From: Rotaria socialis | Taxonomy: Eukaryota | Assembly (NCBI GenBank): GCA_905331485.1 | Contig: CAJNYT010000051.1 | Coordinates: 407,310 to 471,309 of the forward strand | Direction: 5' to 3' | DNA length: 64,000 bases | Shown here: positions 21,136 to 62,006 of the stretch, piece after piece | Numbering within the stretch: position 1 is the first letter of the stretch | Layout of the letters: the number at the start of each line of letters is the position of its first letter | Program-made: the position numbers and the translations under genes | The notes under the pieces: generated by a model | The model's input: only the letters and a program-made list of their open reading frames with translations | Told to the model about the DNA's origin: nothing | The model's database searches: none

Positions 21136-21235
21136 ATATTCATTGGTATGGTCCATCAAGAAGAAATACTAAAGATAAATAGATTAAAAACCGTAATCTA
21201 ATATAGCACCTAATTAAATACCAAGTGTTTTCTCT

Positions 21236-21500
21236 CCCAGGTCGAACAGTCCGGTCTGGAAACGGCAGGTTCCGTGTAGTTCCGTTAATTTTGTGGAAGC
21301 AGTATTCCGGTTGGAAAATTTTCGCATTTTTCTGGTGATTTCTGATTAATTCCTGCCGGAAAGCACCGGAACTTGCCAGGAGTTCGCCGGAAAAGTTCGG
21401 TCGTATTTTTCACCAGAATACAGCTTCCATGTTCCAGCAATTTCCCGCATATTTCCTGCAGTATCCTACGAGATCCGGCGGCCGGAATGTTTGACCCTGG
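21236..21500 (+). mobile_element. MITE-like foldback element (about 265 bp), copy 1. TIR CCCAGGTCGAACA...TGTTTGACCCTGGG
   Basis: Terminal inverted repeats plus an internal palindrome (ggaagcagtattccgg / ccagaatacagcttcc). 85-90% identical to 48821-49117. Confidence 0.75.
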
Positions 21501-27099: not shown

Positions 27100-30000
27100 C
27101 AGCTACCCCCACTACTACCACCAGCACGAGGTGCTACGGATGGTTGCTGTGATGACGATGATGAAAACGAAGAAGAAAAAGGTGTTTTAAAATAATCTAG
27201 GCCAGATGACGATATTGGTGAGATACCTAGAATATATAAATTTATGCAACTATCAATCGATCCACATGAATAATATGCTGAACTATGATAAATTATATTA
27301 CTATCATAGATAAAGTAATGAAGTATGATGATCTTTTAGATTTGCGTCATCATATTACTATCATATCCCTACTGAATGAAGATAAAGCTAAGATGATTGT
27401 ATATCACTTGGAGACAATGTTTCTTTAGAAAATATTATCTACCTGGCTTTGTTATTGATCGAAGTAAATTACACAAACTACAGTCTACTATTATGAAAAA
27501 TAGATATAGAATTTTCTTTTACTATAATTTTTTGAATTTGTCTTAGGAAACTACAATATTTACAACGGTATTGAACATCTATTTAGAAACAACAGGTCTA
27601 ATAGTAAATTACTGCAAACTATCCACCGCATATTCATTATACGCATAGCTTGAATTTATGAAATACAACATTATTTACATTTTGTATTCCGAGCTATGCT
27701 TTGTATTTCAATAAGACAATCAATAAGAACAATCGTAAGGAAAGCTAACTGTATACTGCGAAATGTACCATAGAATTCTAATGGACGCAACCGATTCAAA
27801 TATATTATGGCTACAGTGAAACTTCAGGAGTAACATGAATTGAGGAAATGATACTGATTGCGAAAGAGAAGTAGTAGAAGTAGCGGCTTTTCCCACCTCT
27901 AGATATTGTAAGTCTATCGATGATAGAAAATGGCAATGCCGAGTACAGAAATTAGTATTATTCTATTTGCGACTCACCAACTGCTGATTGATAATTCATT
28001 TGTGGTGCCATATTCGGAAAAGTTGCGTTGTTATTATTGGTGTTGTTTATTATTTGATCTTCTGCTTCGTTCATTAGATTTGATGCACTAGCATACATAA
28101 ACATACTCTGAGGTTGTTCACTAGTACCAGGGACTGCCATATCAGAATAGGGCTTTGATGTATCCATTGAGGATTTCCGAAAAGAGAAAAAGTTTGACAT
28201 TCCACCTCTATCTCTCGATGAAGATCTCCCTATGGTTAATTGTTGTTGTTGTTGTTGCTGCTGCCGCTGCGGTGGTGACATTGACATTGACATTGGCATT
28301 GGTGGTGCCGCTGGTGGTGACATTCTCATTGACATTGGTATTTGTAGTGGTGGTGGTGGCATTCTCATTGATATTGACATTGGTGGCGGTGGTGGTGGTG
28401 GAGGTAGTGGTGACATTGACATTGGCATTGGCGGTGGTGGCGGTGGTGGTGGCTGAGATGATTGCCAAGATACACTTGATGATGGAAGTAGTGGAACTAT
28501 TAATAAGAATTAAGGGAAATGCTTTTATATCTCGAATAGAAATAATGGGTTCTAGTAAAATGTATTCGGATAAATTAAGAACGATTTGGTAGCGTAGCTC
28601 CTTCATGTCTACCATTTGAAACTCATATATATATATTATTTTGCTTCCCTAAGCTAATGCAAACTATATATAAAGCAAAAACTCTTTCGTAGTGTTTAAC
28701 AAAAGATCTGCATACATCTAAGGCATCTACTTCCCGTTAGAAATGAAGACACAATGTTATAGGCCTAACTTAAAATATCACCTGTAGTTGTTTTACGGCT
28801 ACCGCCAAAATAATGCGCTGCTGAAGCAGTAGATTTTGATGAGCTTTGACATCGTTCCAATGATTTTGAAGCTAGAGAGAAACTAGACAGTGGCATGCAA
28901 GCAGGAATGGATGGAAAAAGGAAGAAAGGAAAAATGTCGAAAGGGAAAAATATCGAAAATAAAAATGTCGAAAACAAAAATATGAGGTGAAAATGACCAT
29001 GCAAGATTGAATTGAGGTTGAGGGGGACTTGTACTTCAAAATACTCTCGTTTTCAGCATTTTTATCCATCTACATTTGTATTAATTTTGTTTTCGATATT
29101 TTTATTTTCGACATTTTTCCCTTTCGATATTTTTCCTTTCTTCCTTTTTCCATCATACCGCAAGCAGTAACTTCACGTAGTCGTGGAGGTATTATGGGTG
29201 GCGCAGGAACTGACATTGTAAAGAGTATAAAGAAATAAGCTTGAAACTAAGAACAATTTCACTCATACTTCGTATTTTCTTCTCTTGTTTCGCTTCTTTT
29301 TTAGGCATTTCCTTTAACTTTGGCTGGGATCCTGATTTCGAAAGTAATTAAAATAAAATAAAATAGATTTCATAAATAGGTATCTGTACATTACTTTCAT
29401 TGATCTTTGTGGTAGGCATAAGATGACTCGTTGGAGAAGACATCCGCGTGTCCATGAATCGAACAGATCCAAAATCGCCGCCGCCACTACCACCGCCGCT
29501 ACCGGCAGCGCCTATAGTCGCCTTGCCACTCATTGAATCACCCTTTTTATGTTTCACTGATGACTCTAGTTTCAAATCACTGGATTTCTTCGATGATTTT
29601 ATCATTTCTAGGTTCTTTGCTAAAAATACAATCAAACATGAACTTCATGATATTGCTACTTATCGAAATATGAAATAGTCTATTCATTACTGATAGAAAA
29701 GTGGTAGTATTCAATGACGCAAGCTTCGTCTTTCTTTGTGAAATATAGTTGCTTTGCACTGCCAAGTACAGATTGAGACAAATAGTATAGTGCTGGGTTC
29801 GATATAATAATAATCCATATATATATATATATATATATATATATCGCCATTGAATGAATAAACTGGCATATTCTTGCAATAATCAAAAAGTTGACGAGTA
29901 CTTATGTATTCTTCTGGGAATCAATGCGTATAGAGATTTTGTAATTTACTCATTAAAGGGAACTTTACTTTCAAAGACTATCTAATAATTATCTGAATGG

Positions 30001-33751: not shown

Positions 33752-36700
33752 CTATTCTAATCTAATCAACATACCGTTTCGCATTTTATCTTCAAGTTCA
33801 TTTGCTTTATCATGTTCATTTAATGAATGACGATATGTACGTATAATAGACATCATCATGTCGAATTTAGCATCACCACCTGCTCGATAGGAGATTTTCT
33901 CACAAAGTTTTTCAATATCAACAACCGACTCTTTTTTGCTAAGAATCGATGCACTTTCGAGTGAAACACGACCATCGATTAGTTTCTGTTTAATCAAAGC
34001 CAAACTTGATTTATCACCATCCCATTCTATGTATGGTAATATATCGACATCTCGATCAAGCATAACATCGATGAGACGAACGCCTAACATTGAACAAAAA
34101 AATCTAGTTATCATAGAATATGAGTTTTCTACAAACCTGGTTGAAGAGTTGACTGATCTGTTTTGGCATCACGTTCTTCAATGGCAACAAAACTGGTATA
34201 TGGACTGACAACAGAATAATTAATACTCAAATCTATGAGATCTTGTTTACATTGAATTTTAATCAATTCGTTTTCGCTTTCGTCTTTATGTAATACTCCG
34301 TTTTCATAATCGTCAATTATCGCTCGTGCAGTTAGACAATGTAGAATACGTCCTCTAGTTGTTGTCATTGGACTACTGAATACAGTAGTAACAAATTCTT
34401 GCCCATCGATAGTCGCCGTTAATGTTGCTTTGTGACAATTGTGTATAAATCGATAGACGCTGAGTCGCATTCCATCGAACAAAGATCGGATCATTTTTGG
34501 CGCTTGCATATTGAATTTTTGTCCTTCGTCCAAACCACCATGCCAATCAATCGATATACTTGTAACACATGGTTGTCGGGTATGTTCGAGGATCTCCAAT
34601 ACTTTTGTTTTCCACTTCGATCGATAGTTCGAATCGAATATTGTTACTAGACCACCTCCTCGTATCCCACGAGTTAACTGTTTCAAGCCATGCTTGTTAG
34701 CAACATTCCCAATTGAACATGCAAATAAACGATCACAACGCATAGTTGGTCGATGTTCAAGTAGAGCAATAATCGAATTAACATCATGGATATGTCCGTC
34801 AGATAAAAGAATAAATTGGCGACCCGATTTCGACGACGATAAAGATGGTAGTAATGAATAACGATGAAGAACAGCTAATAAATCTGTATTACCACGATGA
34901 ATAAGTGAATGCTAGAATATACAAATTTTATTAGAAAAACAAAATCATCTCAAACAAAAACTACCGACCAAAACAAAATGTTTGGCTTTATCTAGGTTCT
35001 CTTTTGTAGTTGGTGTTGAAATTGGAAAACATTCATCATTATCTAAATAGTTCAATTTTCAATAGTAGGCAAAATAATATGGTTGAGTATCGTCGTATTA
35101 CCTGACCCAAAAGTAACTACATTGAAATATGTATTTTTATTATCAACTTTCAAATTAGTAAGAAATAAATGAGCTAGCTGTTTAGCTTGTTGAACATGAC
35201 TACCATCCATTGAGTTCGATACATCGACAATGAAAATAATTTCGACTGTTTCGTTCGACATCGATAATGTTTCGAATCTTGGATAGAAAGTAAGTAAACA
35301 TGCTTCAGAATCGCGATTCTTCGATGTTGTTGTTCCATTGTTATCATCTAATGCCCATGTTTCATTTGATATTCGAGGCAAATTAGCACTTTTAAGTGTT
35401 ACCGAAAGAACAAAATCTCGATCGAGTAAAACATTATCGACAAGTTCGACCATGGCCATACAGTCGGTCAGTTTTCGACGAAGACGATGTGTCGGCGAAA
35501 ACAATTTGGTTATTTCATAGGGCATAAGAATAGATGTTTTGAAACTGAATTCGACTTTTTCGTCGACAATATCAATAGATCGTACAGTCGATTGATCTTT
35601 TGCTTCAATGGCTTGTTTCGATTGCCATGAAGCCATTTTTGCTGGAAGTCGAAAGATAATATCGCCATTTTCGATTTCTAATTCGGCAACATAGGTTATT
35701 TTGATAATGACTTCATTGTTGGCTGGTAAGTTACCAACAGCTACGCTGAATACTTGAGCCTGCTCCTGATGCATCAAATAGGCACCGTGGCCTTTTTCGA
35801 TTGCTTCTCGGTATTCTTGTTTGGCTTGTTCTTTCTCTTTGACTACACCTTTAATAATTTTATTATTGATATGTGCTTCAAAACCACATACAGTTGAATT
35901 TTCATCAAGTGGAAACACATATTTAGCTTCGATAGGTGTCGAACTCGTATTATGATAGACTTGATAGAGAACAACCTTATCGATGAAAACAAAACAGGAT
36001 GTATTAGTCGATCAAAACAACAGCTATAATTACTTCAACTGTAGCATCAACGATTTGAGCTCGAATATGAAATGATTTCAGTGGTACAAGTTTTCCCGAT
36101 GATGGACATACTAAACCATAGTCTTGTTCGGCTACTTCAATAATTTCATCATCAATTGTCAAGGGAACTTCGACTAGAACGTAGCAGATAACCTAGCTGA
36201 ATTTTATTGGAAGATAAAGAATCATTATTACCATGTTCACTGAGTTTTAATGCATGTTGCTCATGATGGACAACGGGTAAACGTTCTAGTGCAATATTGA
36301 TACTATCATTTGGTATCCATGAAACTTCCACAATGTAGAGTAAACGTTGTTGATCGAGTTGGTAAATTGCATATTCATTGTCCTATTCCAATAGAAATCA
36401 TATTTATTATTGCAACATTTAGCATGTCGGTATAAGTGACGCTGCTCCAACAATTTCGTATCTAGTTTTATTGAAAACAATGAATACAAAGATATAGAAC
36501 ACAATGTCAAATATTGATCTCTCGTTTTTCTTATTGTATTGCCACGCCATTCATGGCTGCCTGTTCACAACTATTCTCTTCATATTTTTATCGAATATGT
36601 GTTGAAACTCTGGCAATGATACACACGATAAAAATGCTTTCCACAAGCATTCGCGAGTGTAATATTATCAGAAACAATACAAGCAAGCTACTTACGCTAA

Positions 36701-38810
36701 ACATGGAACGATTTTCTTCCGTTCGTTTGACACCATGCGTGCTATGAAAACCATCAGGAGGTTTGGTGATTGTCGGTGAAAATGAATAATAATTCGCTGA
36801 TTCACCTAGGGCGACTTGACAAACACATAATAGTCGTCGACCTGGTCGCGTTGTGCTAGCTGTCGTATATTTTAGCGACGTAGAAACAGAGTCAGAAAAG
36901 TAAACTCCATAACCAAGACAACCAATATCAGTACGGACAACACCTAATTCTTCTACTACCATTTTTGGCATGGCCAAACCACTGAATGTATACATTCACA
37001 CAATAAATATTGTCTCGAGAGAAAGATGAATAGTTTACCGTGAAAGAATTCCAAGAAAATTGGCATATTTTGATCCATGAAATAGTTGCTGTTGATTAGA
37101 TAATGACGTTCGAAAGTTGAGTGCATCTGTTTGCTTGGCTACGCTGAATATTTGATGAATAACGATTTTTTCACCACTAACGAACCGAGAAGCCGATACA
37201 TGTGAAATCAAAATTCAATTCAACTCACTTATCTGTTGACGATTGAATATGTTCGGCAACATTCATAAATTCAGGTGTTGAACTATCGACCATTTCAATA
37301 TGACAGTTCAATGCTCGATATTTTGCTTCGATTGGAGCTTTAATATTCCAATTGGTTAGTTCATTGACTGTGAGCATATCTCGGAGTAACTAAACGAGCA
37401 AAACGTCCAATGAAATTATTAAAATAAATCGACATACCTGACATAAGTCAATTTTTTCAGTTAACGCTCGACGATTTTTTACGAGATCAACCTTATACTC
37501 CGCACGATGCGGAATAAGTGTATAGAAACGAAGCGCAGCAGCAGGATCATTCGTTGATTTGAGTTCAAGTAGTGCAGCCTCAGCTTCAATGATCTGTTCG
37601 GTAGTTTGAAATAAAACTTAATTGGAATACATAAAAGAAAATGAATATATGCGTACAGTTTTGAGAGTAATCGATTCAGGTAATATGCTCAATATTTTAT
37701 TCAAATCACCGATCGATTCTAACCAAACCGATTCAATCAATTGGCATACGTTATCATCGAGTATTTGTGTATCAATGCGATTAGCAAATAAAGACTAAAG
37801 ATATTTTATTTAGTATTGAAAATAAAACTTCTTAATTAATATCATTGACTTACGCGTAGTAATAGTTTTGATCCTAACTTATCTGGTAACATTTCACGAA
37901 TTCGTGTTACACGTGGCATTTTAGCTATTCGATAATAGTATGATGCAAATAATTGTTGTTGTTCGTTGGGTTCATCATCGAATGCATATTGTATCAATAC
38001 TTTATTATCTTGCTTTTGTCCTTGACTAACAATAGTCTGCTTTTCGTATCGAAACCGTAGTCGATAATCTGTCATTGCTCGATCAAAATATTGTTCAGGA
38101 ATAACTTGAAGTTCAAGAACAAAAAATACATCTGAATTGTCATTAGTTTCCTATGAAAAACAATTACAATAGAAGCGAACTAAAGTGATGAAAGAATATT
38201 AATCCTACTTTAAAAATGGCCCATTTGGCTATTTCGCAATGTGTCAATTCATCAAAACGAGGCAAATCAGCATCGTCTGCATTCCATAGTTTTACTTTAT
38301 TCAAATCAAAACGATTAGCTTTAATGCTAGTTGCCTGGGATCCTAACAAGTAGCTATGTAAGACATCAATCAAAACACAAGAACAACGATATGATACCTG
38401 CAATGGGAATAGTGCCTGTTTTTGTAAAATTCTCCTGATCTTCAACTGATTTGACAATAAATTTGCTAATGTCAATTGGCGTTTGACCCGACTGTAAACG
38501 TCGACATTCATATACATATTCAACATTGACCAATGGTAAGCCAAGTTGTTTTGCACGACGGACTTTGTAGCTATCGAAATTATTCGTAACAAATATGTAG
38601 TCAGTCTAGAATAAGTTCTAGTAAAACAGCATATATATATAGTATAGAAGAGCAACATACACTAGCAGTAAGTATGTATGAAATACGTGCTTGCTGTTCT
38701 CGTAAATAGTTGATCAACTCTTGCTTAGCCTTGAATCCTATTTCACGACCGAGCTCGAGTACAATTGTTTTACCATTGAATGGCGATAAAAATGTGGCAG
38801 ATACACTCAT
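33752..38810 (-). CDS. PARP4: Vault poly(ADP-ribose) polymerase (PARP4/VPARP)-like gene: BRCT-like N-terminus, PARP catalytic domain, VIT domain, VWA domain; multi-exon
   Basis: Exon blocks: 38601-38810 (N-terminus MSVSATFLSPFNGKTIVLELGREIGFKAKQELINYLREQQARISYILTA), 38164-38658 (helical/regulatory), 36588-36995 (PARP catalytic: LGYGVYFSDSVSTSLKYT...RRLLCVCQVALGESANYY, compare GKGIYFAD...LLLGEVALG), 35052-35918 (VIT: CGFEAHINNKIIKGVVKEKEQAKQEYREAIEKGHGAYLM...VFSVAVGNLPANNEVIIKITYVAEL; VWA MIDAS motif IFIVDVSNSMDG), 34129-34743 (VWA continuation), 33752-34114 (C-terminus, stop TAG at 33752-33754). The domain order matches PARP4. Confidence 0.75.
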
Positions 38811-43894: not shown

Positions 43895-45076
43895 ATGAAA
43901 TGGCTCTATTTTATCCTATTATTAATGGTGGCTATGCTTGTTTGTTTTGCGAAAAATGAACAGCAAACAGTGATATCTGAAATATATTCACTTGATGGCG
44001 ACTTCGACAAGATTCGGGCATCTGAACACATACAATTCGAATTGACTCACGTCAATAGTGAACCGAGTGTCATCATCGAAACGGAACAATGGTTGCATAC
44101 AGGCCAATATATAACTGTCACAACAAGACCGAATGATTGTTTGTATCCATGATTTGAAGAATACTGTCAGCTTTTACTCATAGCGTCCCATTTCCTTTAT
44201 GAATGTTAAGAAGAAGCACTTGATCTATTCAAACATGAAACGGGTTTTTTGAATATATTTCTATATGAAGAAAAAGATAGTTGAGCAAAGAGAAATATTG
44301 ATTTAATAGATTTCTTGAGCAGATTTGTTAGTTCAGTCTCATCGCAATGTGTTGCAAGTAAAGAAAAACTTTTATTTTTACCTTTTATTCTGAAGACACT
44401 TTATTGAAAAAAAAAAGAATTATTTCAAATTTGTTTGGCAGATCTTGATATCAAATTGGCGAGCGGCACTAATTATCCAGCAATCAAAGTGTATGTTAAT
44501 TACCGCAAAGCTCTCCTTAGTTTGGAAATAGATGGAATGTCGTCAATGAGATCAAGAAACGTCATTTTTAGTAATCCTTCATCGCTTTTGAATATTGCAC
44601 ATTCTGGAGCTGGCAGCGCAATACTCAAACTACAACACGGTTCTAATATTAATGTTGCCATATCTGGTACAGGCCAACTCTCTTTGTCCGGTCGAGTTCA
44701 AGGGAATGGACGATTGAGCGTCTCAGGTACTGCGCACTTGGATGCAATCGAGTGTCCAATGAATATTGCGACTGCTGAAGTGGCTGGATCTGGATCAGCT
44801 TCTGTTTATGGTGTAAAAGGAGTTCATGCCACCGTGAGTGGAGTTGGTAACATTTGCTATCGAGGACCTTTGCTTAGTCAAGTGATAAGTGGTCTTGGCT
44901 CGATCAAAGAGTGTATTGTTGAAGGGACACCTGCAGAACCTCAACAAACAGCTACAGAACCTCAACAAACATCTACAGAACCCCAAAATTCATCATCGCA
45001 AAGCGACAAAATCATGGATAGAAATCAACGATTATTAGTGATTCTTGCTACTACAGTTTTCTTTCTCTTCTTCTAA
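43895..45076 (+). CDS. Secreted, GPI-anchor-like protein with a Gly/Ser-rich beta-solenoid region resembling the bacterial DUF2807 (putative adhesin head, GIN) fold; 2 exons
   Basis: Exon 1 about 43895-44138: signal peptide MKWLYFILLLMVAMLVCFA, then NEQQTVISEIYSLDGDFDKIRASEH.... Candidate donor gtttgt at 44139 and acceptor tttggcag at 44441. Exon 2 44442-45076: ...AHSGAGSAILKLQHGSNINVAISGTGQLSLSGRVQGNGRLSVSGTAHLDAIE...VAGSGSASVYGVKGVHATVSGVGNICYRGPL..., followed by Pro/Thr/Gln repeats (TPAEPQQTATEPQQTSTEPQ) and a hydrophobic C-terminal tail (LLVILATTVFFLFF), stop TAA 45074-45076. Confidence 0.55.
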
Positions 45077-48670: not shown

Positions 48671-48820
48671 CACCGTTTTCTTGGACCTGGGTGGTTTCTC
48701 GTACACTTGGAAAAATAGTGCTGCTCATTTCAACTATTTCTCCTAATGACATATTCATCAATACACGTTGATTCACAATAGCCAAATCATCACATAAAAA
48801 TGTTGCAAACTCCTTGGTAT

Positions 48821-49117
48821 CCCAGGTCGAACAATCCGGCCTGGAAACGGCCGCTTCCGGGTAGTTTCGTTGATTTTGTGGAAGCAGTATTCCGGTTGGA
48901 AATTTGTCGCATTTTTTCCGGTGGTTTACGATTAATTCCTGCCGGAAAGCACCGGAACTTGGCAGGAATTCGTCGGAAAAGTCCGGCCGTATTTTTGACC
49001 GGAATACTGCTTCCATGTTCCAGCAATTTTCTGTGTTTTCCTGCAGGGTATGGTGCCTTTTCCGCATATTCCCTGGAGTATCTTACGGGATCCGGTGGCC
49101 GGAATGTTCGACCTGGG
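48821..49117 (+). mobile_element. MITE-like foldback element, copy 2 (about 297 bp), with a perfect 13-bp TIR CCCAGGTCGAACA / TGTTCGACCTGGG
   Basis: Direct-orientation homolog of 21236-21500. Internal palindrome gtggaagcagtattccggttgg / accggaatactgcttccatg. The overlapping ORFs on both strands (48666-49192) are artefacts. Confidence 0.8.
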
Positions 49118-50108: not shown

Positions 50109-50188
50109 GTGTGGGGTGTGGGTGTAGGGTGTAGGTGTGGGTAGCGGTGCACAGACACAATATCAGCATTCACATCCCACACCCGTAG
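50109..50188. repeat. TG/CA-rich palindrome (gtgtggggtgtgggtgtagggtgtaggtgtgggtag ... cacatcccacaccc), overlapping the apparent 5' end of the GTPase fragment ORF
   Basis: TG1-3-like tract followed about 25 bp later by its CA-rich complement. Confidence 0.7.
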
Positions 50189-50877
50189 TTTCTCTGAATA
50201 GTATTATGAAGAATGTCAATAATGTTCTACAATACGGAAAACAAATGCAACATGGTACTAGCATACCTGTCATATGTGTACTCAGTAAAATCGATGAGTA
50301 TTTCCAAGGCCAAGCGCCTAATTGTGAAGACGATGTCAAACAACTGGAAGAATATACTGAAAGAGCTTTAACGTTGGTAAATAAGTACTTGATTGATCCA
50401 GCTGTCCAATGTATTCCCATATCAACAAGATGCAATTATGGTGTTGACCAACTTCGGCTGAGTATCAATGCTCAATCACCACTGAATGCTCAAATCATTG
50501 ACAAAAATCTTGATTACATTAGCCGATGTCGACTATCAATAGCCAATAAAATTATAGGGGCTTTTTCTACAGCTTCTGCAGCAGCATCGTTTCTACCTCT
50601 TGCGAACATCGTCATTGTAACTTTCTTAAAAGAATGGATGTATCGAATGTTGGCTTGTTTTTCAATCGACCCAAATCGAACCTCGGATACGTTCAAAGCG
50701 GTGCATCGTATGCAACAAACTGCTAGTGTAGCTATTCGTGTTGGTGCACTCTTCATTGGAGGTGTACTTCAATTAAGCATTGTGGGCTACTTTATTGGCA
50801 CGAGTATATGTGTAGTTACAGCCGCAACATCAACAGCTGCTCTCGGTTGGGCATCCTATTTTTACTTTGTTGACTAG
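50137..50877 (+). pseudogene. 3' portion (or terminal exon) of a TRAFAC-class GTPase gene (GTPase C): G4-like LSKID, C-terminal transmembrane anchor. No G1/G3 motifs are present in the ORF
   Basis: Translation ...IPVICVLSKIDEYFQ...CIPISTRCNYGVDQLRLSI... ends with hydrophobic TM segments (LPLANIVIVTFL; GALFIGGVLQLSIVGYFIGTSICVVTAATSTAALGW), stop at 50875-50877. The upstream region is a TG-rich repeat rather than a P-loop exon. It could be a genuine last exon whose 5' exons lie outside a recognisable range. Confidence 0.45.
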
Positions 50878-51250
50878 ATAGAAGTTTGTCGTTTCTACGC
50901 AAACACCATTACCAGAAGGCATTCTATGAAACTGAATAAATCTAGAGAGAATGAGTATTGAAAACAGGATTTTTTCGTTCTTTCAACAGTTTATTTTGCT
51001 CTCTTAACTGTAACGCGTTGTTTTTTGAATGTTCTAAATAAAGACTTCATTTCGATTCAATGAATATTAAATTTGCTACTTTTCAATCATAATTTTTCCT
51101 GAAGTACCTGCCTGATTCCTTTTTAGTAAATAATCGTTACATGAATGGCAACAAATATCTGGATGTATAGATCGAGTGAGCGTTTATCAGTCTATTCATA
51201 ATTATCATTTTTAACGGAATTTTTTTTCTAGAAAAAAAAGCATTTCTATG
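50761..51250 (+). repeat. Direct repeat copy 1 (490 bp): last about 40 codons plus the 3' UTR of GTPase C
   Basis: About 93% identical to 56999-57466. Both end at ...aaaagcatttctatg. Confidence 0.9.
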
Positions 51251-51361
51251 TGGGTGGGTGTGGGTGTGTCATAGATGTCATAATACCGTTACACTGAGTA
51301 TTGTGATGAGTGTGGGTGTGTGGGGGTATATAAGCAAGACACACACCCACACCCTCACCCT
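51251..51361. repeat. TG-rich block (tgggtgggtgtgggtgtg), then a TG/CA palindrome (gagtgtgggtgtgtggggg tatataagcaagaca cacacccacaccctcaccctc), immediately 3' of direct-repeat copy 1
   Basis: Read directly. It marks the left boundary of the putative inserted cassette. Confidence 0.8.
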
Positions 51362-51529
51362 CAAGAAAAAAAAGTTTTCCTATTTTTCTATTCTAACAGG
51401 AAAGTGCATATGACAATTATAATTCGAATTCGAAAAAAACCTTTTTCCTAGTTTTCCTATTTTCCTGTTGTCGAATGGGAGTGCTAGTTGAATTTTTATT
51501 TATTTTCGAAGTAACTTGATGCACTCCCA

Positions 51530-51910
51530 TGTTGCGAATACCGGATCAATTTTTGCGGTAAACCGCGGTATTTATCCGTTCTGCGGTAATGGGAGCCGGT
51601 AGCCGGACCGGTAAAACCGCGGCAAACCGGCGGTTTTTTGCGCATGTTTATCACATGTAAAAGTAAAAACAAAGGATCTTTAAAATAGTTTAATTGATGA
51701 TTTGGAAGACTTTTTCTGTCAAAATTTATAGATGAACCGGTTAACCGCCTTTTTTAGCGGTAACCGCGGTATTAATCAAAACCGGCGATTTACCGCGGTA
51801 AATGCCAGCTCATTTTTTGTGGTAAACCGCGGTATTTATCCGTTCTGCGGTAATGAGAGCCGGTAACCGGACCGGTAAAACCGCGGTTAACCGCCGATTT
51901 TCATGCGGTT
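51530..51910 (-). repeat. CCGCGG-rich dispersed repeat, copy 2 (reverse complement of 20672-21110)
   Basis: ccgcggtatttatccgttctgcggtaatgagagccggtaaccggaccggtaaaaccgcggttaaccgccgattttcatgcggt is the reverse complement of 20672-20755. The AT spacer is also conserved. Confidence 0.85.
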
Positions 51911-51997
51911 TTTATTACATGGGCTTGAAGCTTCATTTATATTCGAATTCGAATTAGGTATATCATGGCTTTGATACAGATATTAGCCTCATCTAAG

Positions 51998-52553: not shown

Positions 52554-54464
52554 TCATGTATTGTTTCCGTATAAGTAACTCACGACTTGGTTCTGGCCTC
52601 GTTTATTTGAAAGGATCTTCACAGTAGCATCGTAATAGCGTTTCATATCTATGTTTTCGTCCATTACACTAATAGTTTTATTGAATTTTGTGAGTAAATC
52701 TTGAGTTCGACCAATAATGTCATAGTTTTTTTTTATTGAAAGTAATGCAGTGACTTTTGCTTTTAATTGTGTTAACGATGAGTTTATTTCTGTTTCCAAC
52801 TTTTGCTGTCTGGCAATCAAGTGTTGTGCTTTAGTTTTTAACATAAATTCTTGTTGTTCAGCATAAGTATAATGTGATCGAGTCTCATTATCTGGTAATG
52901 TTACTCGGACTTTTGCTGTTTGTTGTCGATACATAGGATTATGGGGATTATACCCATCATCATGATCATAATGAGCCTTACTGTATTTCTGATCATGTGG
53001 TCGTTCTCTTGAATATGTGTCATGTCTCTCATCACGATCATGTGATGCTGAAATCTTATGATCTTTACCACAGGTTTCAGCAGTCGCTGATGATGAAGGA
53101 TATCCAGCAGTTCGAGCAGAATATGGTCTTGTAGTTGAATGTGTGCTGTTGTGAGAAGAATCATGATGAAATGAAGTATCGGTATTCTGTTTTAATGATG
53201 ATGAACACGTAGAAGAACGGCTTTCTTGAGGATCATGGTGATGATGATGATTGGATGAAGGATTTTTATACTCTGGTGGCTTGCAATGCTGACCAGTGTC
53301 ATTATCAGTATGCGCCGAAGGATTATTTTTATGCATGTAGTCATCATTCGTTGAATATGAACCGTGTGGATCTCGATTAACAACAAAAGATCTCGAGGTG
53401 TCTTTTTCACAACTCCTTCCTGACGAAGAGGCGCTTTGTGCTGATGCTGGTCGACGATTTTCAATAAATTTCGATGGATTTTCTGATTTTGCGGGTAGTA
53501 GTGATCGTGATTGATGTTGTGGTGATTGATCCCAACGCATAACTGTGATTTCTTGATCTTTTTCCCATTTTTCATTACATTGCATTGTATGGTGCGCATT
53601 GCTAATGCCATCTTCTGTTGCAGTTTGGTCTTTATATATATTAATTAGACTGATAATTTTGTTGATAGCCTCAATAATACAATTTTCAATTAAAGCTATT
53701 TTAATACCACCAATTTCGAATACTTGTGTTGAAACGCTATTAAATTGTAACAATTTTCGCACTAAAGTTTCAGTTATGTCCAGAGTGTCTTCAAAATCTT
53801 GTTCAAACCGACGTATTGCTTTTGATGATTGATTTTTGGGGTTCCATCGAAATAAGCTATTTTGCAAGTGAAATACCCTGCTATCATCTATTTTAAAATG
53901 ATCATGTAATATTGCTGGATCTAAATTAACACTAAGTTTATCACAATTTGTCAAAACTGCAACACAATTGTTTAATAAATCATTTGGCCATATTTGATAC
54001 AATGAATGTAAAACGTTTTTGAATGACACACCGAGACGTGGAAGAGCACCGTTTATAACAATAATAATTCCATTTAGGAAAGGTAATTGTTTTAGAGTCT
54101 TTTCAATGCAGTCCAAATTTCTTTCATCGACATCGAAGCCGTTTGTGTCATTGAATCCTGGTGTATCAATTAGTTCGAGATAAAAATCTGCTGTTCGAAA
54201 TGAATACGTCATGCATTTCTGCGTCTGACTTTGTATTTGATCATTAATATCACGTTCACTGTGCTTATTTCGGTATTTCTTATCAAGACAGTCCAACCAA
54301 TTTGCACATGGTATAGATAATTTAACTTGTGGACTAGTACAAAAAATATTTTTTGGATCTTTTGTACCATAACTCATATTATACAAAAAGTTAATTAATG
54401 AAGATTTTCCGACACCAGCATCGCCAAGTAAAATAAAACGTTTCGGCTCGCGCGCTGAGGTCAT
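52554..54464 (-). CDS. Intronless TRAFAC-class P-loop GTPase A (636 aa): N-terminal G-domain, then a His/Ser/Thr-rich disordered region and a C-terminal coiled coil; GIMAP/AIG1-Toc34-septin-like
   Basis: Full-length ORF with G1 LLGDAGVGKSSLINFL, G3 LIDTPGFNDTNG, hydrophobic IIIVINGAL and G4-like VLTNCDKL. HHHHHDPQ and S/T/H-rich low complexity in the middle. Heptad-like C-terminus (LIARQQKLETEINSSLTQLKAKVTALLSIKKNYD). Coordinates taken from the ORF track. Confidence 0.8.
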   Translation of the reverse strand: MTSAREPKRFILLGDAGVGKSSLINFLYNMSYGTKDPKNIFCTSPQVKLSIPCANWLDCLDKKYRNKHSERDINDQIQSQTQKCMTYSFRTADFYLELIDTPGFNDTNGFDVDERNLDCIEKTLKQLPFLNGIIIVINGALPRLGVSFKNVLHSLYQIWPNDLLNNCVAVLTNCDKLSVNLDPAILHDHFKIDDSRVFHLQNSLFRWNPKNQSSKAIRRFEQDFEDTLDITETLVRKLLQFNSVSTQVFEIGGIKIALIENCIIEAINKIISLINIYKDQTATEDGISNAHHTMQCNEKWEKDQEITVMRWDQSPQHQSRSLLPAKSENPSKFIENRRPASAQSASSSGRSCEKDTSRSFVVNRDPHGSYSTNDDYMHKNNPSAHTDNDTGQHCKPPEYKNPSSNHHHHHDPQESRSSTCSSSLKQNTDTSFHHDSSHNSTHSTTRPYSARTAGYPSSSATAETCGKDHKISASHDRDERHDTYSRERPHDQKYSKAHYDHDDGYNPHNPMYRQQTAKVRVTLPDNETRSHYTYAEQQEFMLKTKAQHLIARQQKLETEINSSLTQLKAKVTALLSIKKNYDIIGRTQDLLTKFNKTISVMDENIDMKRYYDATVKILSNKRGQNQVVSYLYGNNT

Positions 54465-54922: not shown

Positions 54923-56416
54923 ATGTCTTTTTCCAGTATTACCGTGTTCTCCTGCTCTACCGTCCGAAAGGAGTCGAATCCAAATATTATCATTCTATTC
55001 ATTGGTGAATCAGGCTCAGGCAAATCAACTTGTATAAATTATTTTGCCAATTATTTTACCAATTCTTCATTTGATGAAGAAGATCATTATTCAAATATGA
55101 AAATTGTTATACCAAACAGTCTATTTCCTGAGCCGAATTTTCCTGAGGGACACCATCGACATTGTGAGCGTAATGTACATGATACTAGTATGAGTCAAAC
55201 GCAAGAATGTACTGCTTATGATTTTCGATGGAATGGGCAATGTATCAAAATTATAGATACACCTGGTTTTAATGATACAGATTCCCATAAAGATGATCAA
55301 AATATTCAGAAAATCTTGACACAAGCTTCACAAGTTCCATTCATTAATGCTATTGTAATCACGATCAATGGCACAAATGTTCGTTTATCAACATCCATCA
55401 AAACAACATTGAGTCAACTGCGTAGTTCATTACCAGATAAAATTTTTAAAAATTTATTTTTTATCTTCACAAATTGTACTGAAGAAACTAGAAACTTTGA
55501 TTTATCCCTGATTTCTGAATTCAAACCATCAGAAGAACGAACATTTCATATGCAAAATGCATTGTTTTCCATCAAAGATAAGTCGTTACTTCAAAACACA
55601 AAATCAGTACGAAAAATGGCACAAACATGGAAGGAGTCGGTAGAAACAATGGGCGAAATAATGCAGGAAATAAATCAAACATCGGCTACATCGGTACAAG
55701 TATTTAATGATATGAGAATTCGACGAGAACAACTGATTGTACACAAGGAGAATTTGATTGAAAAACAAAAGTCTTTGCTAAATATCATGAATACATTGCA
55801 AATTGAAAAAGAGCGTTTGAAAAATGCCTCTGAAGATCAACAAGCAAACAAAAATTTCACGGAATCAAAACGTATCAGCGTTATTGATATAGAAAAAAAA
55901 TCATATTATAGTACAATTTGTCTGAGACATGGTAAAGTACAAGTATGCCATGAGAACTGTTCGTTATCATATGAGCCCAAGTTGAATTTGCATCATTTTC
56001 AACAATGTGCTGCTGCAAATGGATCAAATTGCCGACATTGTGCGTGTGGAATGAATGACCATTTACATTCTTACGAAATTCCAGTATCACGACTAAAAAC
56101 GGTTGAAGAAATCATTCAAAGTAAAAAGGCTGCTTTTGAACAAGCCAATAGAAATATAAAAAGTAGTAGCGATAGAGTTGTTCTCTTAGAGCGTGTTCGA
56201 GATGCTTGTCAGAATGAGGTTAATGATATTAAAGATGGCTTGTTGACGACAATAAAGGAGTTGAAACAAATTTGTTCACACTTCAATTTTCACGATGAAA
56301 TGAATGGTACAATACAAAAGTTAAGAAAAGAAGCTAAAATTGCAACAGACTTTAAAGCAAAGCAAGAATTCACTCGAACAGCCAATGCCATTGAACATTT
56401 TATCAATCGAATTTAA
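54923..56416 (+). CDS. Intronless TRAFAC-class P-loop GTPase B (497 aa), a paralog of A: G-domain, Cys/His-rich segment, C-terminal coiled coil
   Basis: G1 LFIGESGSGKSTCINYF, G3 IIDTPGFNDTDS, VITINGTNVRL and G4-like FIFTNCTEE. Shared blocks with A (SQTQ(K/E)C(M/T)(T/A)Y.FR, ERTFHMQNALF / SRVFHLQNSLF). CxxC/His cluster CHENCS...CRHCACG. Coiled-coil tail. Coordinates taken from the ORF track. Confidence 0.8.
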   Translation: MSFSSITVFSCSTVRKESNPNIIILFIGESGSGKSTCINYFANYFTNSSFDEEDHYSNMKIVIPNSLFPEPNFPEGHHRHCERNVHDTSMSQTQECTAYDFRWNGQCIKIIDTPGFNDTDSHKDDQNIQKILTQASQVPFINAIVITINGTNVRLSTSIKTTLSQLRSSLPDKIFKNLFFIFTNCTEETRNFDLSLISEFKPSEERTFHMQNALFSIKDKSLLQNTKSVRKMAQTWKESVETMGEIMQEINQTSATSVQVFNDMRIRREQLIVHKENLIEKQKSLLNIMNTLQIEKERLKNASEDQQANKNFTESKRISVIDIEKKSYYSTICLRHGKVQVCHENCSLSYEPKLNLHHFQQCAAANGSNCRHCACGMNDHLHSYEIPVSRLKTVEEIIQSKKAAFEQANRNIKSSSDRVVLLERVRDACQNEVNDIKDGLLTTIKELKQICSHFNFHDEMNGTIQKLRKEAKIATDFKAKQEFTRTANAIEHFINRI

Positions 56417-56959: not shown

Positions 56960-57113
56960 AGTATCGAGTTTTCTCCTATGTGCGCCCACACTCATCCAGG
57001 TGCACTTCAATTAAGCATTGTGGGCTACTTTATTGGCGCTGGTATATGTGTAGCTACAGCCGCAACATCAACAGCTGCTCTCGGTTGGGCATCCTATTTT
57101 TACTTTATTGACT
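56960..57113 (+). pseudogene. Orphan 3' remnant of a GTPase-C-like gene (TM-anchor tail only), within direct-repeat copy 2
   Basis: The translation ..HPGALQLSIVGYFIGAGICVATAATSTAALGWASYFYFID-stop is about 90% identical to the C-terminus of 50137-50877. It is preceded by a CA-rich block (gtgcgcccacactcatcc) and no upstream exons. Confidence 0.6.
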
Positions 57114-57466
57114 AGATAGAAGTATGCTGTTTCTACGCAAATACCATTACTAGAAGACATTCTATGAAACTGAATAAATCTAGAGAGAATGAGTATTGAA
57201 AACAGGATTTTTTTGTTCTCTTAACTCTAACGCGTTATTTTTTCAATGTTCTAAATAAAGACTTTTCATTTCGATTCAATGAATATTAAATTTGTTATTT
57301 TTCAATCATAATTTTTCCTGAAGTTCCTGCCTGATTCCTTTTTAGTAAATAATCGTTACATAAATGCCAACAAATATCTGAATGTATAGATCGAGCGAGC
57401 GTTTATCAGTCTATTCATTATCATCATTTTTAACGGTTTTTTTTTCTAGAAAAAAGCATTTCTATG
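56999..57466 (+). repeat. Direct repeat copy 2 (468 bp) of 50761-51250
   Basis: Collinear alignment throughout. It is followed by unrelated sequence (ttaacaag), whereas copy 1 is followed by a TG-rich block. Confidence 0.9.
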
Positions 57467-58280
57467 TTAACAAGTTTTAAAAACCAATAAACATCTTCAT
57501 CCCTATATAAGTACTGGAACATAAATAGTATTCATACATGATTCTGACCCTCAAAAGAATTTATTTATTCATTCTATTTCAGTCAGTTCGAAAAAAAAAG
57601 ATTTAATGCAAAACTGTACGATCATGTTTATGTCTTGCTAATGAAGATAAGACAAGTCATGATTCTGACAACGATAATATATTCCTTAAATGTCATTCGC
57701 TGTACAATTCATTCCTAATAATAGTTAAGTTGATGATTGCAATCGACTGAAGTCAAGTTTAAGTAGAAGAACAAATTAATTATGTATATCAAAAAGAAAC
57801 TCTTTCATCTTCTAGCAACATGCAACACTAACAATAGTAGGATAAATCCTCATGGAATTCAAGTTCATGAACACATATAATTAGTTTTTCCATAGAAGAA
57901 AAAACAAAAAAAAATTAATATGAATCTTTCTTTTTCTCGACATACATTTATTTATAATAAATTTAAGGTAAAAAAATATTAGCCACCCGATGTTTTCTAA
58001 TTGTATGTGACACAACTTGCATCACAAATATATGATTATATCATATTTAATTATACGTCCGACGGCCAACGTCTGTTTTCTAAAAAAATCAAAACAATTC
58101 CTCTGTTGATCAAATTTGACTTGGCAATCATTTTGTTTTCTTTCTTTTCCGATGCTACTGATGAATAAAAGATCTTCTCAACATATTTCATTTGTCATGC
58201 AATAAACAATGCGTGCTACAGTACGATAATAATTGTCCTAGAGTATGTTGCCTTTTTTTCTTCTTTAGACAATCATTATC

Positions 58281-60152: not shown

Positions 60153-60682
60153 CTACTCTAAATTCGATTGTTGTTGTTGTTGTTTGATTAGATTTGTAGC
60201 AGCAGAAAAGTGAACAGCCGAATTAGGTATTGATTGCTCATTGTTGTGTTCGCCCTCGTCCTCGTACTTCCATAAGGATCCACAATCGATTAATTGAGCG
60301 TTATTAAATTTTTTATAATCGAAAGCTTCAAGTGTGGAATCGCACGATGAAAACTGAAAACCCCACAAAATTTCACTCGGTAAATACGACGTACGAAAAT
60401 GACACGCGAATCCAGTGTAATCAAACGCTCCTTCAATAATTGCAATGATTTCAAAATGTTCTTTTGCTAATGTCGATTTTTGAATACCATAGAGCGGACT
60501 ACGACTATTAATTACATGTTCAACAACGGTTGGCCGTGGAAAAAATAGTTGACCATTACGAAGATGTGTTATTTCCATATCAAAGATTTGATGAGGTACT
60601 ATTTCGCCTTCAAGTGTTCGTCGTTCACGAATCATTAATAAACGAACAGTAGCAGATATTAATTGAGAAGCTGATAAATTTC
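60153..60682 (-). CDS. Kir channel, terminal exon: cytoplasmic Ig-like C-terminal domain
   Basis: Acceptor ttttctatag. ...SPLYGIQKSTLAKEHFEIIAIIEGAFDYTGFACHFRTSYLPSEILWGFQFSS... (compare Kir2 SPLYDLS...[35 protein letters not shown]), polyQ tail, stop TAG at 60153-60155. Confidence 0.8.
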
Positions 60683-60823: not shown

Positions 60824-61339
60824 CTAAAAATAGAAATTTATAAGTTTCAAAGATTATCTTTTTTTCAAATGATGAATAACTTTGTCCAATCAATTTTTTG
60901 TCTAAGTACAACTCATGGAAATTCAATACTTCATATCGCAGGCAAATCATAACTTCTACTCATATATTCGTAAGTCTATCAGCTTCCTACTAATAAACAA
61001 TTTTTTCAAACATTTAGAATTCGCTGTTCAAAGTTGCCGGGCTTCATGCAGACTACATAACATGATGTTGTTTCTTTCCAATCAACTTGTTGTGCATTCA
61101 CGTTTTCGTAAGCTTCGACTTCAATAAGATTCTTAAAGCAACAGTAGAAACTGAAATTTTCAGTCGCGTAATACAATCTTCGTTTGATTTAGATACGCGA
61201 TATCAAACGGACAAAAGACGACAAAGTAACATACTTTTAAACCTGGGAATTTCTCTCGTCAGATTGAAAATTAAACTTGTAGATTGGCTCACTTTCCGAG
61301 TTTACAAACTTTCGAATCGATAGCAACTAGAGTTTTCAC

Positions 61340-62006
61340 CTGTTGGCCTTGATAATTTTGTAAAAACAATTTGTGTTACTATCACTTGCAATAAATATCC
61401 CAATGATGATTGAAGTGTTAATACAAGAATTCCACCGATACATTCTGTTGTTATATATCGTGAACCATATCCAATTGTATGTTGAGTTTCAATAGAAAAC
61501 AGAAGTGCACTTAGAAAATTATGCACATCTTTAACACAGGTTTCTTTGTCGGCATACGTATTTCCATGAGTAAGATTTGTTTGATTAGCTAATAAATTAT
61601 TATTGTCATCTGTTAAAACAAAATCCCCATGTTCAATTGATATAAGAAAATAAAGAAATGCAAATGCAAACCAACTGAACAAAAACCCACATAGAACCAA
61701 TGTTAATACAAGCCACCATTTAGCTTGCATGATAAATAAAATCAAATTCGAATGAATATGTTTAATACGCCCAATCGATAAATAACTAACATTAATATGA
61801 CCATCTTTATCAACAAAACGAAAGGCATCCGTTGATGATAAATCATTTATATTATCATTTGCATTAACAGTTCGATATTGTCCTTTGTTGTCATTAGTTT
61901 TATTCATTCTTCGTTGTGAGATTGATAGTGTAAATCGTAGAAGAAATATTTTCCTTGTAACGTCACAAGAACGAACGAGACGTCTAGCTGTATAGAATAA
62001 TAACAA
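61340..62006 (-). CDS. Inward-rectifier K+ channel (Kir/KCNJ family), exon 1: N-terminus, M1, pore helix with TIGYG filter, M2
   Basis: AFRFVDKDGHINVSYLSIG...KWWLVLTLVLCGFLFSWFAFAFLYFLI...FLSALLFSIETQHTIGYGSRYITTECIGGILVLTLQSSLGYLLQVIVTQIVFTKLSRPT; donor AG|gtgaaa. The true start may be the internal Met (MNKTNDNK..) or further upstream. Confidence 0.8.

Follow-up and report, generated by a model that had tools for sequence, protein, structure and literature searches.

How has the bdelloid rotifer Rotaria socialis come to carry a gene for a glycine- and serine-periodic beta-solenoid of bacterial appearance, and what might the product do in an animal? A preliminary description of the DNA had left two options for its origin, horizontal acquisition and convergence. 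We examined the gene within its window (the whole stretch of 64,000 nucleotides that was analysed, to which all positions refer). The gene model is as follows.

43895-45076, plus strand: gene with two exons, from the ATG to the last base of the stop codon
43895..44138, plus strand: exon 1 (residues 1-81 and base 1 of codon 82), holding the start codon, the predicted signal peptide and the DUF2807 domain up to its 46th residue
44139..44441, plus strand: spliceosomal intron of 303 nt, phase 1, GTTTGT...TTTGTTTGGCAG, 28.7% GC
44442..45076, plus strand: exon 2, with the remaining DUF2807 solenoid, the stalk, the hydrophobic tail and the stop codon (45074-45076)

The outer limits proposed earlier for the gene, 43895 and 45076, turn out to be exactly the ATG and the end of the stop codon. 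Spliced translation gives a protein of 292 amino acids (P0001) that matches the 'unnamed protein product [Rotaria socialis]' along its full length (100%) with 100% identity. The intron had been part of the preliminary description as well, and two observations speak for it: the splice reproduces the annotated protein, and its donor, acceptor and phase recur in three orthologous loci (L003, L004 and L005, where exon 1 is also found with tblastn), even though the introns there measure 1097, 443 and 361 nt. The intron position is common to four Rotaria-type loci. Other in-frame splice pairs were considered and rejected, as only 44139/44441 yields the annotated protein and recurs as donor and acceptor in all three orthologous loci. 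The Pfam match to DUF2807 runs unbroken over the exon junction, and both the paralogue P0013 and the bacterial homologs continue through the intron position without interruption. A search for a further copy of the gene within the window found none.

The surroundings are those of an animal gene. Neighbours in the window include a PARP/VIT/VWA vault-PARP-like gene, AIG1 GTPases and a Kir channel, and the GC3 of the coding sequence (31.7%) compares with 23-31% in neighbouring ORFs. The region 33895-54629 recurs at 100% identity in R. socialis contig CAJOBR010000585.1, which belongs to a separate assembly record (GCA_905332275.1), and the protein is recorded on two contigs. With animal neighbours, host-like composition and a spliceosomal intron, the reading of the gene as eukaryotic holds: it is a resident, intact nuclear gene of R. 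socialis. Its protein is already present in NCBI and UniRef under the DUF2807 domain name, by automatic annotation.

The core of the protein is a bacterial-type DUF2807 single-chain beta-solenoid, laid out as below.

44000..44866, plus strand: DUF2807 (PF10988) domain, residues 36-223, split by the intron; Pfam E=3.2e-24
Residues 26-238 (to window position 44911), plus strand: modelled beta-solenoid, from the AlphaFold (AF2) model
44603..44899, plus strand: six solenoid rungs, with [S/A]-G-x-[G/A] turns at residues 136, 156, 176, 196, 214 and 231

The Pfam match to PF10988 (DUF2807, head GIN domain) scores 86.1 bits against a cut-off of 24.2 and covers profile positions 1-179 of 181. A likeness to DUF2807 had been proposed for 44560-44900; the match confirms it, but the domain is wider than that, its first residue being residue 36 of the protein, encoded in exon 1 (window 44000). 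Because homology starts there, the mature protein minus stalk and tail consists entirely of domain. The periodic motif described earlier for 44560-44900 corresponds to the rung motifs at 44603-44899, and every peptide quoted from it is found in the exon 2 reading frame. Motif spacing is 20, 20, 20, 18 and 17 residues, one solenoid rung each. Four glycines (G165, G177, G197 and G215) are invariant among 80 homologs, and another seven (G113, G157, G199, G217, G223, G232 and G234) are conserved in at least 90% of the 80 sequences.

The predicted structure gives the same picture. The AF2 model has a pLDDT of 89.7 overall and of 93-98 across the domain. At the sequence level the protein matches five solved DUF2807 structures (3jx8, 3lyc, 3ljy, 4opw and 3pet, best E=3e-9), and in Foldseek the top 15 chains all belong to these same five DUF2807-family entries (E about 1e-11 to 1e-9); superposition on 3pet gives a TM of 0.87 and an rmsd of 2.1 A. 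Profile and structure comparison, which had been named as the way to check the assignment, thus agree on DUF2807. An NCBIfam search with the protein returned no meaningful match. Because bdelloids withstand freezing, we also considered an ice-binding solenoid (DUF3494); this is ruled out, as such structures score E>0.9.

Outside the solenoid, the following features were recognised.

43895..43951, plus strand: predicted signal peptide, residues 1-19, MKWLYFILLLMVAMLVCFA, likely cut after Cys-Phe-Ala
44924..45004, plus strand: low-complexity stalk, residues 243-269, rich in Thr/Gln/Ser/Pro/Glu, from composition and pLDDT
44927-44986, plus strand: tandem repeat in the stalk, 21 bp in 2.9 copies, encoding TEPQQT(A/S) (TRF)
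44987..45073, plus strand: C-terminus resembling a GPI attachment signal, with N264-S-S-S267, the spacer QSDKIMDRNQR and the hydrophobic LLVILATTVFFLFF

All three elements that the preliminary description had placed around the solenoid, namely a signal peptide, a Pro/Thr/Gln-rich stalk and a GPI-like hydrophobic tail, are recovered here by sequence rules and composition. Residues 3-18 have a mean Kyte-Doolittle hydropathy of 2.7 and are followed by C-F-A, where the cleavage site was placed with the -3/-1 rule; in the AF2 model a helix (residues 2-18) lies outside the solenoid fold. The stalk has a pLDDT of about 50, which indicates disorder, and its length differs among species, since an extra 13-14 residues are missing from three orthologs. 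At the C-terminus the small residues N264-S-S-S267 form a candidate omega site, followed by an 11-residue polar spacer and by the last 14 residues of the protein, with a mean hydropathy of 2.84; a helix (residues 275-291) is modelled there. By rule of thumb, this order of small omega residues, polar spacer (expected to be about 6-12 residues) and hydrophobic end is that of a GPI signal, and the orthologs retain it. The hydrophobic tail is conserved in the Rotaria orthologs and in most Adineta-type paralogues. It is missing from three bdelloid paralogues (P0129 of A. ricciae, P0134 and P0142 of Didymodactylos carnosus), which means that not every bdelloid member of the family would be anchored in the membrane.

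Differences are pronounced when comparing these termini with those of bacterial relatives. A lipobox-like motif (defined as [LVI][ASTVI][GAS]C where the signal peptide ends) occurs in 124 of the 222 bacterial-type homologs and in neither P0001 nor any of the 24 bdelloid sequences checked. Conversely, a hydrophobic C-terminus was found in 0 of the 222 bacterial-type homologs, whereas most bdelloid members combine such a terminus with the lack of a lipobox. This fits an old bacterial acquisition that was re-tooled as a putative GPI-anchored surface protein.

Who are the relatives? Among the named matches, rotifers are represented by Rotaria spp., Adineta vaga, A. ricciae, A. steineri and D. carnosus only, so that all three of the bdelloid families that were sampled (those of Rotaria, Adineta and Didymodactylos) are represented. 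Outside bdelloids, every named match is bacterial, most of them from the Bacteroidota (entries under Bacteroidota, Puia and Fulvivirgaceae, with a few from Spirochaetales and Anaerolineales). No other animal appears among the named matches of the 113 listed, most of which are metagenome proteins; a second listing comprised 150 representatives, 20 of which were looked up for taxon. Genome relatives of the best bacterial match (P0130) are all Bacteroidota: Sediminibacterium, Flavisolibacter, Flavobacteriaceae and Lutibacter. Scanning metagenome contigs with P0001 gave no confirmed relative. Identity amounts to about 30-35% with the nearest bacterial proteins and about 20% with the solved structures.

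In a neighbour-joining tree of 236 sequences the bdelloid proteins form one clade, with a bootstrap of 53/100. Bacterial sequences are so distant (about 1.5 substitutions per site) that saturation is nearly reached, and the tail-less group of A. ricciae and D. carnosus lies at 1.5-1.6 from the Rotaria gene, comparable to bacterial sequences. Given the low bootstrap and the near-saturated distances, neither a single transfer nor the donor phylum, which is probably Bacteroidota, is firmly established. The Rotaria and Adineta groups do share the motifs IETEQW(L/V)H, CPM(N/K) and Y(R/Y)GPL, which do not occur in the bacteria aligned. Of the two options left by the preliminary description, horizontal acquisition is supported. 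Convergence is rejected because the match is one of collinear, full-length sequence homology, beyond mere likeness of fold. The DUF2807 gene of R. socialis is another instance of the well-known uptake of bacterial genes by bdelloids.

Four orthologs have intact ORFs, with dS values of 0.14-0.59 and dN/dS ratios of 0.31-0.58, below 1 in all six comparisons. A ratio of up to 0.58 shows moderate constraint only.

The closest known counterparts are the DUF2807 lipoproteins of Bacteroidota (BF0245, 3PET; PARMER_02777, 4OPW; P. distasonis, 3LJY/3LYC/3JX8; and PGN_1547). They share with the rotifer protein the full-length domain, the single-chain beta-solenoid with [S/A]-G-x-G turns every 17-20 residues, and a size of about 200 residues; for both, display at the surface by means of a lipid tether is predicted. 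The rotifer gene differs in residing in an animal genome and being interrupted by an intron, in having a predicted eukaryotic signal peptide in place of the N-terminal lipobox, and in its added stalk and GPI-like C-terminal signal. The Pfam name, autotransporter adhesin head, and the Gly-rich beta-rung motif also recall the head repeats of trimeric autotransporter adhesins. However, a Pfam scan of the protein at E<=1 found neither a YadA-like anchor nor a coiled-coil stalk family, and the C-terminus is modelled by AF2 as a disordered stalk with one hydrophobic helix. Moreover, the solenoid is single-chain (modelled here and solved in homologs), and the gene lies outside a Gram-negative outer-membrane setting. 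As the autotransporter anchor is absent, the Pfam label is not to be taken literally.

Horizontal acquisition in bdelloids has reportedly been the subject of earlier work by Gladyshev, Boschetti and Flot. The present gene resembles other foreign genes of these animals in being bacterial-type, located amid animal genes, ameliorated in composition, furnished with an acquired intron and shared between bdelloid families. About half of the bdelloid foreign genes predate the divergence of the families, and they are mainly enzymes of polysaccharide catabolism and stress response (Eyres et al. 2015, PMC4632278). Unlike the genes of that survey, the rotifer DUF2807 protein would be a non-enzymatic surface-display module; DUF2807 is absent from the text, and the supplements examined contain nothing on DUF2807, PF10988, adhesin or GIN. 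A full-text literature search for PF10988 or DUF2807 turned up no paper on rotifers. Sporadic cases of DUF2807 outside bacteria are known, and adoption of a bacterial surface or adhesion module by a eukaryote has parallels: the adhesive trail proteins of diatoms are bacterial adhesion proteins acquired by eukaryotes (bioRxiv 10.1101/2023.03.06.531300), and EHI_112850 of Entamoeba histolytica carries DUF2807 (PMC11560011). The domains of the diatom proteins differ from ours, however, and Entamoeba is an unrelated host.

Taken together, we consider it probable that a bacterial solenoid was acquired before the bdelloid families split, was domesticated and is now displayed through a GPI anchor as a binding or adhesion module. 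Gene structure, homology, fold, place in the genome, taxonomic spread and exchanged terminal signals are what the analysis demonstrates; the donor phylum, the GPI anchor, the glycosylation and the adhesive role are inferred. Judging from distribution and tree, the DUF2807 domain would have been taken up from a bacterium, most likely one of the Bacteroidota, before the sampled families diverged, and would then have given rise to a small gene family in bdelloids. In the course of its domestication the protein would have shed the lipoprotein signal that its bacterial forerunner had at the N-terminus, and would have acquired a eukaryotic signal peptide, a short stalk of variable length rich in Thr/Pro/Gln, and a hydrophobic signal at the C-terminus. 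In the Rotaria lineage a spliceosomal intron would have been inserted inside the domain. The present-day protein would enter the ER and lose its signal peptide after about Ala19, and its C-terminal 25 or so residues would be exchanged for a GPI anchor near Ser265-Ser267. The solenoid of 200 residues could then be held on the outside of the cell membrane by means of a flexible, probably O-glycosylated spacer.

There the solenoid may serve in binding or adhesion, by analogy with the P. gingivalis adhesin PGN_1547, the one DUF2807 protein that has been studied by experiment. Its deletion weakens both the formation of biofilm and the attachment to host cells (PMC10949514). The analogy has to bridge two kingdoms at a sequence identity of about 20%. 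In addition, depositors have labelled other DUF2807 structures 'pectinase' or 'lipid-binding', and the domain is also fused to LiaF-type membrane modules (PF22570, PF18917). Given these varied labels and fusions, the fold dictates no single function.

Several other explanations have to be weighed against this account. Bacterial contamination or mis-assembly might be suspected since the nearest non-rotifer relatives are all bacterial, but the probability is close to nil: the intron within the domain and its presence in orthologs of other Rotaria-type genomes, the animal genes flanking it on one contig, the identical sequence in a separately deposited assembly and the second contig bearing the protein, the host-like GC3, the predicted eukaryotic signal peptide and tail, and the distance to any bacterial protein (just 30-35% identity or so) all argue against it. 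Evolution has repeatedly produced beta-solenoids with Gly-rich turns, and a periodic Gly/Ser solenoid could in principle owe nothing to DUF2807. Such convergence is hardly credible in view of the collinear full-length profile match and the pairwise matches to solved DUF2807 proteins down to E=3e-9. Furthermore, the bacterial alignment includes the non-repetitive N-terminal half, and in Foldseek tapirins and hemagglutinin secretion domains fare no better than ice-binding DUF3494 structures, all with E>0.9. A decaying relic without function would agree with the fairly high upper dN/dS value, yet is very improbable, as four diverged loci have all retained an intact reading frame, splice sites, signal peptide and tail, all six dN/dS comparisons stay below 1 and the solenoid glycines are conserved.

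More weight is due to two other readings. We regard it as rather unlikely, though worth serious attention, that the protein is exported without a GPI anchor, being either secreted or held by a plain membrane anchor, and has a non-adhesive job such as innate-immune microbe receptor, gut polysaccharide binding or structural coat component. The paralogues that lack the tail entirely and the varied depositor labels (pectinase, lipid-binding, adhesin) are in its favour, and the relaxed dN/dS, the varying stalk length and the family expansion are typical of host-microbe interfaces. A transmembrane anchor, however, sits poorly with a hydrophobic stretch of just 14 residues that has no cytosolic residues after it, and the NSSS residues and polar spacer upstream have the classic layout of a GPI signal; the sole experimental datum for the DUF2807 family is, moreover, one of adhesion. 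Less probable still is an origin of the bdelloid genes in several separate transfers from bacteria, or in some older lineage of eukaryotes, instead of in one acquisition before the bdelloids diversified. The bootstrap of just 53% for bdelloid monophyly, the distance of the tail-less group and the presence of the domain in the unrelated Entamoeba speak for this reading. Against this, the point-estimate tree has one bdelloid clade with no intruder from the 222 bacterial-type sequences, and the motifs shared by the Rotaria and Adineta groups are derived and missing from the aligned bacteria.

Bdelloids are the textbook case of large-scale uptake of foreign genes by animals, and the examples described are mostly enzymes. 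The R. socialis gene is a clean and well-delimited example of another class, a bacterial surface or adhesin fold. Current views are not altered by it, because the domain is already known to automatic annotation and the phenomenon is well documented. Nonetheless, one small locus displays every step of domestication: intron gain, host-like composition, replacement of the signal and addition of a stalk and GPI-type tail, together with family expansion across Rotaria, Adineta and Didymodactylos. This makes it a handy teaching and test case for the routing of foreign proteins to the animal cell surface, and it may offer a handle on the surface biology of bdelloids. More tentatively, and with some doubt, we suggest that a solenoid lipid-tethered at its N-terminus in bacteria has become a GPI-tethered, fairly fast-evolving bdelloid family, now held by the C-terminus on a variable stalk, with a bdelloid-specific role in adhesion or microbe recognition. 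If true, a non-enzymatic foreign gene would have been integrated into the animal cell surface, where it might help the rotifer to attach, to feed or to ward off attacking fungi and bacteria.

The gene at 43895-45076 lies in an AT-rich window (about 33% GC) whose genes have a eukaryotic layout. Translation gives two reading frames on the forward strand, and listing all GT..AG pairs that link them yields the following structure:

43895 to 44152 (+), first reading frame, from the ATG at 43895 to a stop at 44152
44139 to 44441 (+), intron of 303 nt, phase 1, with donor at 44139 (GTTTGT) and acceptor at 44441 (TTTGTTTGGCAG)
about 44435 to 45076 (+), second reading frame, with its stop at 45074-45076

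The spliced product of 292 aa is identical over its full length (100%) to the deposited 'unnamed protein product [Rotaria socialis]'. The CDS limits are exactly those proposed in the preliminary description, and all peptides quoted there occur in this product. GC content is 28.7% in the intron and 40.6% in the CDS.

A Pfam scan places PF10988 (DUF2807) on a single stretch of the protein, residues 36-223, covering profile positions 1-179 of 181 (E=3.2e-24, 86.1 bits against a cut-off of 24.2). Because this homology begins in exon 1 and crosses the splice junction, it supports the intron independently. [S/A]-G-x-[G/A] turns recur at residues 136, 156, 176, 196, 214 and 231 (spacing 20, 20, 20, 18, 17), and five DUF2807 proteins with solved structures, all of Bacteroides or Parabacteroides, match in a PDB sequence search: 3jx8 (E=2.8e-9), 3lyc, 3ljy, 4opw and 3pet. 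An alignment of 80 sequences served to build an AlphaFold2 model, which reached a mean pLDDT of 89.7 (>93 across the DUF2807 domain) and contains:

residues 2-18, N-terminal helix
residues 26-238, continuous beta-solenoid
residues ~245-270, disordered segment
residues 275-291, terminal helix

The top 15 chains found with Foldseek in the PDB are all of the DUF2807 family (E ~2e-11; TM 0.87 and rmsd 2.1 A for 3pet), whereas other solenoids, among them ice-binding proteins, tapirins and hemagglutinin secretion domains, score E>0.9. Both HMM and structure matches were looked for, and Pfam, PDB and Foldseek agree on the DUF2807-like solenoid that had been read from the sequence. The name 'autotransporter adhesin head' given by Pfam would mislead if taken at face value: the Pfam scan detects neither a YadA-type anchor nor a coiled-coil stalk, and the solenoid is formed by a single chain.

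Three orthologous loci were compared: L003 in R. magnacalcarata, and L004 and L005 on two metagenome or assembly contigs of Rotaria-type genomes. In all three, exons 1 and 2 are arranged as in R. socialis, with the same GTTTGT...TTTG(A/G)CAG junction in equal phase. Compared with the 303 nt of R. socialis, the intron measures 361 and 443 nt in L004/L005 and 1097 nt in L003 (4042-5138), where an insertion, possibly of a mobile element, may account for the surplus of some 800 nt. For R. magnacalcarata the deposited model (P0002, 320 aa) uses an upstream ATG that puts 41 residues ahead of the conserved MKW start, and is probably mis-annotated there. Reading frames are intact in all four loci, with pairwise dN/dS of 0.31-0.58 at dS of 0.14-0.59; these comparisons indicate purifying selection, though of a rather relaxed kind.

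Could the gene be a bacterial contaminant? The segment 33895-54629 is present at 100% identity in R. socialis contig CAJOBR010000585.1 (assembly GCA_905332275.1), which places the window in a bdelloid rotifer, and animal genes share the contig (vault-PARP-like PARP/BRCT/VIT/VWA, AIG1-type GTPases, an inward-rectifier K+ channel). GC3 of the DUF2807 CDS (31.7%) is close to that of adjacent ORFs (23-31%). Contamination is ruled out by these animal neighbours, the near-host GC3, the intron kept in the orthologous loci and the intact frames. The surroundings comprise:

27958-28428 (-), ORF of 156 aa with an extreme Pro/Met-rich repeat at its start (MPMSMSPLPPPPPPPP...) and a polyglutamine run; no Pfam match
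33895-38810 and further left (-), large multi-exon gene with exon-sized ORFs at 34129-34743 and 35052-35918
50137-50877 (+), ORF of 246 aa with a hydrophobic C-terminal half; no Pfam match
52554-54464 (-), long, uninterrupted AIG1/GIMAP-type GTPase ORF of 636 aa with a long His/Ser/Asp-rich low-complexity middle
54923-56416 (+), long, uninterrupted AIG1/GIMAP-type GTPase ORF of 497 aa, divergent to the former
60153-60635 and 61302-62006 (-), two exons of an inward-rectifier potassium channel with IRK transmembrane and IRK_C domains

The potassium channel, being an ordinary animal gene, helps to confirm the metazoan context. The annotated 2336-aa product of the multi-exon gene matches BRCT, PARP, VIT, VWA and HSP70 families and resembles vault-PARP (PARP4), for which the HSP70 match is unusual. 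The immune-type GTPases are intronless and adjoin the foreign DUF2807 gene. The 3' part of the 246-aa ORF (50760-51251) has a counterpart of 90% identity immediately beyond the 3' end of the second AIG1 ORF (56998-57467), which suggests a gene unit duplicated in tandem. A repeat of about 400 bp has at least two copies, separated by 30 kb (51526-51921 and, inverted, 20660-21055; 95%), contains sub-repeats of 122 bp (51537-51657 and 51801-51921) and is probably a mobile element fragment; 48820-49046 and 21235-21461 share 88% identity.

The family was traced with two protein searches, one word-indexed and one exhaustive over 1.84 billion representatives, the latter giving 3655 matches at E<=1e-3. 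Among the matches listed, identity to the query falls sharply from 51-81% (Rotaria-type) to ~31-35% in a second eukaryote-like set and ~28-35% in bacteria. Cluster look-up assigned eukaryote-like sequences to Adineta vaga (UJR23179.1), A. ricciae, A. steineri and Didymodactylos carnosus, so that three bdelloid families, Rotaria included, carry DUF2807; no other animal occurs among the database matches with an organism name, which are the minority. The Adineta-type paralogue P0013 is a single uninterrupted ORF (on an 8.5-kb AT-rich contig), so the intron is confined to the Rotaria-type lineage. Since bacterial homologs are uninterrupted too, the simplest explanation is an intron gain after transfer. 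Most of the bacterial relatives that carry a name belong to Bacteroidota (Puia, Fulvivirgaceae/Splendidivirga, Bacteroidota MAGs), besides a few Spirochaetales and Anaerolineales, and every genome relative of the best bacterial match falls within Bacteroidota (Sediminibacterium, Flavisolibacter, Sphingobacteriia, Flavobacteriaceae, Lutibacter, Prolixibacteraceae). Neighbour joining on 228 columns, with 14 full-length bdelloid sequences and 222 of bacterial type, puts the bdelloid sequences in one clade, but at a bootstrap of 53/100 and with near-saturated distances. The best, though tentative, reading is one ancient uptake from Bacteroidota. One database protein of 627 aa (P0116) joins a Rotaria-type exon 2, lacking stalk and tail, to ~500 unrelated Leu/Asn-rich residues, and would be either an artefact of gene-model fusion or a genuine chimera among the paralogues.

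Although the domain aligns collinearly end to end with the closest bacterial proteins, the termini differ. These bacterial proteins start with a lipoprotein signal (...S/A-C) and end a few residues past the last rung. A lipobox-like motif lies within the first 40 residues of 124 of the 222 bacterial-type full-length homologs, and none of the 222 has a hydrophobic C-terminal 14-mer. The rotifer protein lacks a lipobox and instead has a predicted eukaryote-style signal peptide (MKWLYFILLLMVAMLVCFA, followed by KNEQQ). Its stalk is a 27-residue Thr/Gln/Ser/Pro/Glu-rich segment, partly encoded by a tandem repeat:

44927-44986, 21-bp tandem repeat, 2.9 copies, encoding TEPQQT(A/S)

The 13-14 repeat-encoded residues are absent from the three orthologs; other relatives have Pro/Thr-rich linkers of their own. 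The C-terminus reads N-S-S-S / QSDKIMDRNQR / LLVILATTVFFLFF, that is, small residues in a row, a polar spacer of 11 residues and then 14 hydrophobic residues that close the protein. Small residues, a polar spacer and a terminal hydrophobic stretch are, as an accepted rule of thumb, the layout of GPI-attachment signals, and by its sequence the rotifer C-terminus has this layout. It is kept in the orthologs and most Adineta-type paralogues and is missing in three paralogues (A. ricciae P0129, D. carnosus P0134 and P0142). The preliminary framing of the solenoid by signal peptide, stalk and GPI-like tail agrees with these sequence features. It appears that the bacterial lipid tether, at the N-terminus, gave way in the animal to a lipid tether at the opposite end.

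The uptake of foreign genes by bdelloids is well documented; according to Eyres et al. 2015 (PMC4632278), nearly half of these genes are older than the divergence of the families, and they are mainly enzymes. The R. socialis gene matches this pattern in age and is unusual only in that it would encode a non-enzymatic surface module. No mention of DUF2807 in rotifers was found in the supplements of that study or in the literature searched, while the UniRef entry for the rotifer protein already carries the domain label. Among other eukaryotes, at least Entamoeba histolytica has a protein with a DUF2807 annotation (EHI_112850; PMC11560011).

The protein would be imported into the ER, cleaved near Ala19, GPI-attached near Ser265-267 and O-glycosylated on its stalk, and the solenoid would be displayed outside the cell to serve in binding. 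Annotations within the family point to various functions: solved members were deposited under the labels 'pectinase' or 'lipid-binding', and LiaF-type membrane modules are fused to some homologs. Deletion of P. gingivalis PGN_1547 (DUF2807) reduced biofilm formation, THP-1 cell attachment and virulence (PMC10949514). As this is the sole functional experiment found for DUF2807, adhesion or ligand binding is, by analogy, the best-supported guess for the rotifer protein. A role in microbe recognition would also fit, being compatible with the relaxed constraint, the variable stalk and the diversity of paralogues.
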